Of a DNA stretch of 15,506 bases, positions 9,186 to 11,144 are shown in pieces. Each line of letters starts with the position of its first letter. Within the stretch, counting starts at the first letter, position 1. The DNA comes from a virus (Duplodnaviria > Heunggongvirae > Uroviricota > Caudoviricetes), in IMG/VR virus record IMGVR_UViG_2700989487_000004, one strand, 5' to 3'. Under the pieces are notes generated by a model that saw only the letters and a program-made list of their open reading frames with translations, did no database searches and had not been told where the DNA came from. A program made the translations under genes and the position numbers.

Positions 9186-11144
9186 TTACGCCGTACATTT
9201 CACTAGGCCGCGGTGATCAACTGGCGCAACACCAGCGTCAATACGTACTTTCGTTGTCACGCCATCCACACTGAAGCCCTCCATCTGATCAATATATGGC
9301 GTATCCACACCGTTGAGATAAGCCACTTCAATCGTATCGGAGCCTTTGGACGCAGCCAGGTAGAAGGTGGTCTGGCTGTTATCATCAAGACGAGGCTCTG
9401 CAATAACGGTCGCAAAATCTTTCACCGGGTTAATAATACCGGCGTTAATGTCAGCCCCCTTGACACTTGAGGAGCGAATGACCTGGTTAGCAACAGACTC
9501 CATCGCCGTCGGTACCAGTACGAACGCAGGACGAATATTCAGATGACGCTCACCCTCTTTCTGAACGCGCATCAACTGGCGGGCTTTATCCAGCGATGCC
9601 ACGTCCATTGCCGCGCTCTCCAGTACGTTTGCATGTTTCGCTTTATCGAACAGACTTACATTATCTGTGGAGATTTTCGGGTTAGACGTCAGAATGGCAT
9701 AAACCAGATCGGCAATAGTGGATTTCGCCGCACGGCCCAGCTTCATCGGGACATCGGTCAGCATATTCAGATCATCATTGATAATGGCCTGACGGGTGAT
9801 ACTGAACAGCTCGCCATAGGTCGCCAGTGCAATAGTGGCCTGTTTATCTCCGGTGGTGACGTATTTATATTCTGCCCCTTCACGCACCTGACGCAGAGCA
9901 CTGAAGCCCCCCATACCCACACGATGGGCAATTTTAAAATCAGACAACTGACCTTTCCGCGTCCACTGTTCATAGGTTTCAGGGGCATCTTCCCAGCCCT
10001 GCAGAATGGCTTTGTTCGCAACATCCAGCAGAATATTACCGAAGTCAGACGTACTGTGTGTGAACGCCGCACCGACCATCTGCATCGGGTTATAACTGGA
10101 AACACCAATACCACGTTCAGTCAGTGACATACGGGCATATTCACGCAGGGTCATCCCGTTGTAGACATTATCACGTTCGGTTTTTTCAAACCCGGCGCGC
10201 GCCATCAGCGCCTGGCGGATCCCGTCCCCCACAAAATTACCGTTACCGGCATAAATATGAGCCGGGGTATTTTTATTGGATGGCGTGGACTCGCGCCCCA
10301 TCTCGTTCAACAGCTTTTCGCGGGCCTGCTCCAGCGAACATTCAGGATCGGCAAGACACTGAGCCTGCAGCGACTGATAACGCCCACCAAACATGGCAAA
10401 CAGATCATTAATACCGTTTACACGCGCTTTTTGCTCTGCCAGGACCTGCGCACGGATGCTGTTTTCATCCACCACGGGTGCTGCTGCCTGCACTGGCGTC
10501 CGGGAGGCTGCAGGTCCATCATCCTGTACGCGTGGAGCACTGTTGCGTGGCGGAGTAATCATATTTCGAATGGATTCCGGCATCTTTTTAAATTCCTCTG
10601 TACGTTTTGACTGAATACATGCCATTGCCTTAACGGCTGGTGTCACCTGATCAGCAAATCCCTGTGCCAGACATTCGGCACCGGACATCCAGGTCTCATC
10701 CGCCAGCATGGCAGCAATTTCATCGGTGGTTTTCCCGGTTTTCTGTGCATAAGCGGGTAACAGAACCGCCTCAACTTTATCGAGCAGGTCGGCATAGGTG
10801 CGCATGTCCTCCGCATCACCGCCCGTAAAGCCAAATGGTTTATGAATCATCATGAAGGAGTTTTCCGGCATAATGACCGGGTTTCCCACCATCGCAATGA
10901 CCGACGCCATTGACGCCGCCACACCGTCGACATAAACGGTAATGGACGCACCATGTGTTTTCAGTGCATTAAAAATGGCGATGCCTTCAAAGACATCGCC
11001 ACCCGGTGAATTAATATGGAGATTAATGTGGGTGATATCGCCCAGTGCATTCAGATCACTGATAAACTGCTTCGCCGTAACACCCCAGAAACCAATCTCG
11101 TCATAAATATAAATATCCGCGTCACTCTGGTGACCTGCCTGCAT
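9186..11144 (-). CDS. Fused prohead protease (ClpP/S14-like) - scaffold-like linker - major capsid protein (HK97-type inferred)
   Basis: ~652-aa ORF; N-terminal ClpP signatures INSPGGDV, GVAASMASVIA (catalytic Ser context) and MMIHKPFG (His); Ala/Gln-rich linker; large C-terminal domain in the capsid position after portal; start at ATG 11142-11144, 11 nt after the portal stop. Confidence 0.75.
   Translation of the reverse strand: MQAGHQSDADIYIYDEIGFWGVTAKQFISDLNALGDITHINLHINSPGGDVFEGIAIFNALKTHGASITVYVDGVAASMASVIAMVGNPVIMPENSFMMIHKPFGFTGGDAEDMRTYADLLDKVEAVLLPAYAQKTGKTTDEIAAMLADETWMSGAECLAQGFADQVTPAVKAMACIQSKRTEEFKKMPESIRNMITPPRNSAPRVQDDGPAASRTPVQAAAPVVDENSIRAQVLAEQKARVNGINDLFAMFGGRYQSLQAQCLADPECSLEQAREKLLNEMGRESTPSNKNTPAHIYAGNGNFVGDGIRQALMARAGFEKTERDNVYNGMTLREYARMSLTERGIGVSSYNPMQMVGAAFTHSTSDFGNILLDVANKAILQGWEDAPETYEQWTRKGQLSDFKIAHRVGMGGFSALRQVREGAEYKYVTTGDKQATIALATYGELFSITRQAIINDDLNMLTDVPMKLGRAAKSTIADLVYAILTSNPKISTDNVSLFDKAKHANVLESAAMDVASLDKARQLMRVQKEGERHLNIRPAFVLVPTAMESVANQVIRSSSVKGADINAGIINPVKDFATVIAEPRLDDNSQTTFYLAASKGSDTIEVAYLNGVDTPYIDQMEGFSVDGVTTKVRIDAGVAPVDHRGLVKCTA

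Follow-up and report, generated by a model that had tools for sequence, protein, structure and literature searches.

The 15,506-nucleotide (nt) stretch of viral DNA analysed here (IMG/VR virus record IMGVR_UViG_2700989487_000004, Caudoviricetes; hereafter the window, meaning the whole stretch) carries all of its genes on the minus strand. One long gene in it (9186-11144), located between the genes for the portal protein and the tail completion protein Z, very probably encodes a prohead protease related to ClpP, a scaffold-like middle segment and the major capsid protein on a single polypeptide. The parts of this fusion gene are as follows, with residues numbered on the form of 652 amino acids (aa) that begins at ATG 11144.

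9186-11144, minus strand: fusion of ClpP-like prohead protease, scaffold-like middle and major capsid protein; 652 aa from ATG 11144, stop codon TAA at 9186-9188
11145-11213, minus strand: probable actual start of the gene, adding 23 codons from GTG 11213, giving a 675-aa product and overlapping the last 56 nt of the portal gene
10641-11078, minus strand: ClpP-type serine protease domain, aa 23-168, Pfam CLP_protease
10470-10553, minus strand: Pro/Ala-rich hypervariable linker, aa 198-225, no Pfam match
10086-10469, minus strand: helical scaffold-like (delta-domain-like) segment, aa 226-353, from the linker to the capsid domain, no Pfam family
9198-10085, minus strand: major capsid protein domain, aa 354-649, Pfam Phage_capsid_4

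The fusion gene and its parts

A scan of open reading frames (ORFs), together with the translation, has found the frame of the fusion gene free of stops from 11405 down to the TAA at 9186, and the gene is thus not split by an unnoticed frameshift or stop. A preliminary description of the locus, made from the letters of the sequence, had proposed one ORF of ~652 aa and had named such a hidden interruption as the finding that would speak against it; the 652 codons indeed run uninterrupted from ATG 11144. Regarding the start codon, GTG 11213 is likelier than ATG 11144. It is favoured because it is preceded by AGGAGG with a 5-nt spacer (no other in-frame start has a Shine-Dalgarno sequence that is strong), because the RefSeq annotation of the protein (WP_001136588.1) takes the same start and a length of 675 aa, and because the database homologues are mostly 675-690 aa long; upstream of ATG 11144 the scan of start sites has detected no Shine-Dalgarno sequence. 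The single-member database entries P0006, P0033, P0034, P0063, P0064 and P0068 (997-1135 aa) carry portal or terminase Pfam domains in addition to the ClpP and capsid domains, and they probably reflect insertions, deletions or assembly errors through which the frames of the overlapping upstream genes continue into that of the fusion, which is open up to 11405. The longest antisense ORFs over or beside the gene (plus strand, 9543-10127, 10257-10610 and 8912-9274) have no Pfam match and have been rejected as chance ORFs.

The N-terminal part of the protein has been assigned to Pfam CLP_protease (PF00574) at aa 23-168, with an expectation value (E) of 4.6e-36 and 124.8 bits against a cut-off of 20.2, and it also passes the NCBIfam model NF045542, 'head maturation protease, ClpP-related' (217 bits vs a cut-off of 120), so that the protease-family match expected in the preliminary description has been obtained. 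Both of the proposed ClpP active-site motifs, GVAASMAS (aa 74-81, 10925-10902) and MMIHKPFG (aa 98-105, 10853-10830), are present and align with the Ser and His motifs of solved ClpP structures; in a search of the PDB, solved ClpP chains are matched by this domain with E down to 8e-16. The corresponding codons lie at 10911-10913 (Ser78) and 10842-10844 (His101), and that of Glu150, which is aligned with the catalytic Asp of ClpP, at 10695-10697. Six diverse phage ClpP-like head proteases, taken from Escherichia, Salmonella, Vibrio, Staphylococcus and Mycobacterium phages with hosts of three bacterial phyla, all have the Ser, the His and a Glu-Thr-Trp (ETW) motif without variation. The models for genuine ClpP (TIGR00493 and the PRK equivalogs) all remain far under their cut-offs, TIGR00493 for instance scoring 60 bits vs 308.6, and models of the SppA/S49 type give weak matches below threshold. 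On these scores, the N-terminal domain is ClpP-related but not ClpP.

Between the protease domain (aa 23-168) and the capsid domain (354-649), a central part of ~200 aa has no Pfam family. The preliminary description had summarised it as an Ala/Gln-rich linker, and it has turned out to consist of two parts: aa 198-225 are rich in Pro and Ala, to which that wording does not apply, and the predicted helices that follow are rich in Ala, Gln and Leu, to which it does. In an alignment of 15 sequences, the Pro/Ala-rich linker stands out as much the least conserved region, at 0.33 vs 0.8-0.95 elsewhere. An AlphaFold2 model has been computed for the 675-aa form from a 15-sequence alignment in which all members are at least 75% identical, and it places helices at residues 250-305 (675-aa numbering) in a block with a predicted local distance difference test score (pLDDT) of 62-79, the only moderately confident part beyond the ClpP core. 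By analogy with Gifsy-2 and HK97, this middle segment would act in scaffolding.

The C-terminal domain, which had been described as capsid-sized, is matched by Pfam Phage_capsid_4 (PF25209) over aa 354-649 with an E of 6e-55 (187.8 bits vs a cut-off of 27) and by Mu-like_gpT (PF10124) with an E of 3.7e-08 (33.5 bits vs 20.1), which confirms its assignment to the capsid. The solved Mu GpT-domain capsid proteins 8rkx/8rkc are matched weakly but significantly (E 1.6e-4).

As a whole, the protein belongs to a family that has already been curated. It scores 984 bits vs a cut-off of 475 with NCBIfam NF045540 (scaf_prot_MCP1, 'ClpP-like prohead protease/major capsid protein fusion protein'), the match spanning aa 9-651 on model positions 2-651 of 652, and PHROG 133 is matched by it end to end. 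A search of 5.8 billion proteins has yielded 3662 relatives at E ≤ 1e-10, and among the top matches listed nearly all have the same two Pfam domains, many of them bearing the fusion-protein name. The same single ORF has been annotated in at least 16 independent phage genomes at 98-100% nt identity, and the full-length fusion occurs in 80 phage records. Of 5426 complete Escherichia coli genomes, 1796 contain at least 80% of the window, and copies that are 100% identical over window positions 1-15203 have been found in O145 strains. Since head genes of the Gifsy-2/mEp460 type thus sit in prophages of about a third of the complete E. coli genomes, the fusion gene is an ordinary member of a known, experimentally studied and extremely common family. 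It ranks among the commonest prophage head genes of E. coli, Shigella and Salmonella and has little weight as a discovery. Public records label the same gene variously as 'protease/scaffold', 'head-tail preconnector protein Nu3', 'protease C', 'Major head protein' or 'ClpP', and in mEp213 as 'terminase protein'.

Neighbouring genes and similarity to lambda

Between the stop of the portal gene (11158) and the start of Z (8496), the window contains only the fusion ORF and two small ORFs. The features on both sides of the fusion gene are the following.

12875-14977, minus strand: large terminase, lambda gpA family; Pfam GpA_ATPase and GpA_nuclease, 70% identical to the Gifsy-2 large terminase
11158-12666, minus strand: portal protein, lambda gpB family; Phage_portal_2 E 6.5e-82, 64% identical to the Gifsy-2 portal protein in an alignment that starts at Met 12666
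9149-9162, minus strand: GC-rich hairpin GGCCCGTAAGGGCT followed by the T-run TTTTTTTG, from a consensus scan; 24 nt past the fusion stop, where 86 nt separate the fusion gene from the decoration gene
8776-9099, minus strand: head decoration (cement) protein of 107 aa, DUF2190/Phage_cement_2; Pfam E 2.7e-20, PHROG 122 'head decoration' E 1.5e-46
8508-8783, minus strand: head-tail joining protein of 91 aa, PF13856 'Gifsy-2' family; Pfam E 1.8e-17
7918-8496, minus strand: tail completion protein Z, with which the lambda-like tail block opens; Minor_tail_Z E 1.1e-76

The decoration protein is 61% identical to its Gifsy-2 counterpart, by alignment with which its start has been set, and it is the functional analogue of lambda gpD. 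The 91-aa protein downstream is 45% identical to the Gifsy-2 counterpart and matches Phage_attach (FII) weakly (E 0.0018, under the cut-off), which suggests a remote relative of lambda gpFII. RefSeq names its gene 'DNA breaking-rejoining protein' and Pfam describes the family as 'ATP-binding sugar transporter', both of which are probably misnomers for a head-tail joining protein. The predicted hairpin at 9149-9162 could act as a partial terminator or as an mRNA-stabilising stem-loop after the capsid gene.

At its far end, the window runs into an insertion sequence (IS): ~330 bases (15179-15506) form the end of an IS3-family (IS629-like) element, which starts with TGAACCGCCCC at 15179. The element cuts a small-terminase-like gene of the DUF1441 family (14977-15178), of which the C-terminal ~55 codons are left (Pfam DUF1441 positions 107-146 of 147), and RefSeq likewise lists the gene as 'incomplete' beside an IS3 transposase. 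Matches to the mEp460 group end at 15178 and those to the cdtI group at 14878. The prophage copy in the window is probably packaging-defective.

All late proteins of lambda have been compared with the window by tblastn, at an E of 1e-3 for the head proteins. Lambda A and B are 25% and 21% identical to their counterparts in the window, and no match to C, Nu3, D, E, FI or FII has been obtained in it at this threshold, which agrees with the proposal that the lambda set C-Nu3-D-E-FI-FII is replaced by one large ORF and two small ones. The tail proteins follow with identities of 50% (Z), 53% (U), 55% (V), 33% (G), 38% (T), 25% (H), 55% (M), 93% (L), 97% (K), 79% (I) and 97% (the first 184 aa of J). 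In DNA, lambda matches the window at 85% nt identity over 1-3082 (lambda 12965-16057), and a further stretch of 67% covers Z-V. A mosaic junction between head and tail modules had been placed near 8500-9100; the lower bound is upheld, as lambda similarity ends at ~8500, on the boundary between Z and the FII-like gene, and the junction does not extend to 9100. With portal and terminase as remote as 21% and 25%, the non-lambda block is larger and takes in the entire packaging and head module (8508-15178). This block from terminase to the FII-like gene is of the Gifsy-2 type. The sharpest junction against lambda is found not between head and tail but near 3082, where the tape-measure gene (H) ends and M starts.

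Two observations concern the tail block. The tape-measure gene (2944-6039) encodes ~1020-1030 aa vs 853 in lambda, at 25% identity, and window positions 3501-4500 within it have an AT skew of -0.32 to -0.34 and a GC content of 0.50, compared with ~0 and 0.55 elsewhere. The slippery heptamer GGGAAAG of lambda G/T is absent from the G/T region (5981-6747), so that any programmed frameshift there must use another site; its three matches elsewhere in the window correspond to chance level.

Interpretation of the fusion gene

Taking into account the domain content, the continuity of the ORF, the family membership, the synteny and the near-identity to viable phages, we are confident, if short of certain, that the gene is the head gene of a lambdoid prophage of the Gifsy-2/mEp460 type, in which a ClpP-related protease, a linker with a helical scaffold-like segment and an HK97-fold capsid protein are carried on one polypeptide. 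Copies of the full-length precursor would assemble together on the portal and form a T=7 procapsid in which the protease and scaffold parts face inward, and the tethered proteases would then cut off the N-terminal ~350 residues, leaving a mature capsid protein of ~300 aa. Upon DNA packaging the shell would expand, and trimers of the downstream DUF2190 protein would cement it.

Several points weigh against this interpretation or narrow it. The residue at the position of the catalytic Asp of ClpP is Glu150 (in ADETWMS), which is acidic and not Asp, and because of this replacement the catalytic arrangement is not strictly ClpP-like. The AlphaFold2 model has been found unusable (mean pLDDT 36, predicted template-modelling score 0.24, capsid part ~25) because its alignment contained only near-identical homologues, and the HK97 fold of the capsid domain has consequently to be taken from sequence-family evidence only. 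The GenBank record of mEp460 starts the gene at the ATG, which leaves the start ambiguous between 11144 and 11213. The processing, the cleavage sites and the capsid geometry proposed here would follow the precedents of Gifsy-2, HK97 and lambda. Finally, with an IS element in the small-terminase-like gene, the fusion gene may in this host never contribute to a virion.

Among the alternatives, the one that survives best, though we regard it as unlikely, is that an internal in-frame start additionally yields a scaffold-capsid or capsid-only product, as Nu3 is produced within lambda C, so that a minority of subunits would carry the protease. The nested translation of lambda C/Nu3, as annotated, gives a precedent, a protease on all of the ~415 subunits would by our reasoning be a heavy internal load, and an in-frame ATG at 10583 stands at the start of the middle region with a weak AGGA 10 nt upstream. 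However, a strong Shine-Dalgarno sequence precedes only GTG 11213; the internal candidates are preceded by 4-nt motifs that are poorly spaced, and no convincing combination of Shine-Dalgarno sequence and start for a Nu3-like product has been found in the fusion gene. The gene also contains no promoter-like site, and the annotations examined list no such product.

Far less probable is that the gene encodes a protease and scaffold only, as an analogue of lambda C/Nu3, with the major capsid protein encoded elsewhere. GenBank names such as 'putative protease/scaffold protein', 'head maturation protease' and 'head-tail preconnector protein Nu3' would suit this, but other records call the same gene 'Major head protein' or 'Major Capsid Protein', and the C-terminal 296 aa carry the matches to Phage_capsid_4, Mu gpT and solved capsid proteins described above. 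Between portal and Z only the 107-aa decoration ORF and the 91-aa FII-like ORF are otherwise available, and lambda E is without a match in the window, so that we have rejected this explanation on the capsid-domain matches and the lack of another capsid candidate between portal and Z.

That two genes, one for protease and scaffold and one for the capsid protein, have been joined by a sequencing error, a frameshift or a pseudogene-forming mutation has next to no probability: although many phages have a ClpP-like protease beside a separate capsid gene (Staphylococcus phage fPfSau02 and Vibrio phage K259 are examples), an artefactual fusion is rejected by the stop-free frame and by its conservation in distant relatives, as the same ORF recurs in thousands of bacterial proteins besides the phage genomes and records counted above, is kept in a Vibrio phage at 27% identity and is represented by two curated NCBIfam fusion models. 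Equally negligible is the reading of the N-terminal domain as host-type ClpP, carried as cargo and working with ClpX or ClpA in ATP-dependent proteolysis, which many database names suggest ('ATP-dependent Clp protease proteolytic subunit', 'Clp protease ClpP') but which we reject on the low equivalog scores as against the passed phage model NF045542, the fusion to a capsid protein, the position of the gene between portal and decoration genes, and the change of the ClpP Asp to Glu in the ETW motif common to phage head proteases.

For annotation, the single-polypeptide reading means that the capsid gene of such prophages is to be sought in the C-terminal half of a 'Clp protease'. The family is moreover a model for a head in which protease, scaffold and shell are supplied in a fixed 1:1:1 stoichiometry, and to our knowledge few studies have addressed where the fusion protein is cleaved or in which oligomeric state its tethered protease exists.

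Comparison with known head modules

The closest studied system is Gifsy-2 of Salmonella (the window derives from E. coli), whose 'tripartite capsid gene' (STM1034.3n.Gifsy2, 696 aa) is built of the same three parts; end to end, its protein and that of the window are 70% identical. By part, the identity to the window protein is 63% for the ClpP domain, 51% for the middle, 21% for the linker, which is unalignable, and 87% for the capsid domain; a longer N-terminal extension and an insertion of 8 residues before the capsid domain are found in the Gifsy-2 gene and not in that of the window. The annotation of the Gifsy-2 gene reads 'Clp protease involved in capsid processing'. Its neighbours are likewise shared at 43-70% identity (terminase, small ORF, portal, fusion, DUF2190 decoration protein, PF13856 protein and Z-U-V-G-T-H), and the window indeed presents the Gifsy-2-type context of a lambda-family portal, the fusion, a small decoration gene, a head-tail joining gene and a lambda-like tail. 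This head-tail arrangement is common to Gifsy-2, mEp213, mEp460, cdtI, Stx phages and a Vibrio phage. The cryo-electron microscopy and the capsid-processing data are said to be those of Gifsy-2: proteolysis there reportedly gives a mature capsid protein of ~30 kDa, and the 2010 work of Effantin and colleagues reportedly described T=7 capsids, to which the HK97 fold was fitted together with a decoration trimer resembling gpD. Modelling with the HK97 fold is stated in the title of Effantin et al. 2010 (Virology 402:355), as cited in PMC12315714 and PMC8538268. In a passage of PMC12315714 the Gifsy-2 gene is described as combining prohead protease and coat protein in fused form, and in one of PMC8538268 Gifsy-2 is cited for a decoration protein that forms trimers at the 3-fold axes.

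Even nearer in sequence are the phages of the mEp460 group. The protein of mEp460_ev081 is 100% identical (gene DNA 99.7%), and the fusion genes of mEp460, Ayreon, cdtI, phi458 and further phages are 98-99% identical in nt (98.4-99.7% with mEp460_ev081 included). With mEp460-type phages, window positions 1-15178 are collinear in a single piece at 95-98%, mEp460 itself reaching 98.2%. The members of this group are intact free phages, whereas the copy in the window is a prophage with an IS-cut small-terminase-like gene. In a passage of PMC9836094, lytic and lysogenic cycles are confirmed for 26 focus lambdoid phages, apparently including mEp460; as mEp460 is apparently viable, the fusion would build working heads.

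More distant fusions are known as well. A second curated family, NF045541 (scaf_prot_MCP2; PHROG 4523 'major head and protease protein', e.g., in Stenotrophomonas phage S1), aligns with aa 197-649 of the window protein at 399 bits vs a cut-off of 525 and leaves the protease part unaligned, as fits a sister family; the capsid half of phage S1 is 36% identical. The Vibrio phage has the order portal, 670-aa fusion, DUF2190 gene, small ORF and tail-completion gene, its fusion being the one with 27% identity.

Within the family, the two halves of the gene differ in their relationships. Identity to the window is 80% for the protease half and 75% for the capsid half in mEp213, and 63% and 87% in Gifsy-2, and this switching pattern indicates that the halves have apparently been exchanged separately even though they are fused. 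The hypervariable linker (10470-10553) may therefore be a recombination boundary within the gene. In the protease half, the invariant Glu-Thr-Trp may point to a Ser-His-Glu protease (or a dyad) acting as a domain tethered to the capsid, and not in a ring as ClpP does. Taken jointly, these two suggestions are tentative, and we place them somewhat on the doubtful side. Both the Glu-Thr-Trp at the ClpP Asp position in phage head proteases and the domain-wise mosaicism across the linker may so far have gone without explicit description.

HK97 offers a parallel for the scaffold. The delta domain of its gp5 is removed by the phage protease inside the procapsid, and that protease is encoded by a separate gene and belongs to the herpesvirus-like S78 family. 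As in HK97 gp4/gp5, the scaffold function of the window protein would likewise lie N-terminal on the capsid protein. Instead of a decoration protein, HK97 has a covalent chainmail, according to a passage of PMC8538268.

In lambda, the head genes occupy the same place between portal and Z and fill the same roles (protease, scaffold, decoration trimer, capsid protein and head-tail joining protein), and C/Nu3 already fuses protease and scaffold. The window differs in that its protease is of the S14/ClpP type and not S49, as lambda C is annotated, that the capsid protein is fused, that the decoration protein is DUF2190 and not gpD, and that FI has no counterpart. The stand-alone ClpP-like protease genes of Staphylococcus phage fPfSau02 and Vibrio phage K259 sit between the portal and capsid genes, and the fusion gene thus corresponds simply to the loss of a gene boundary.

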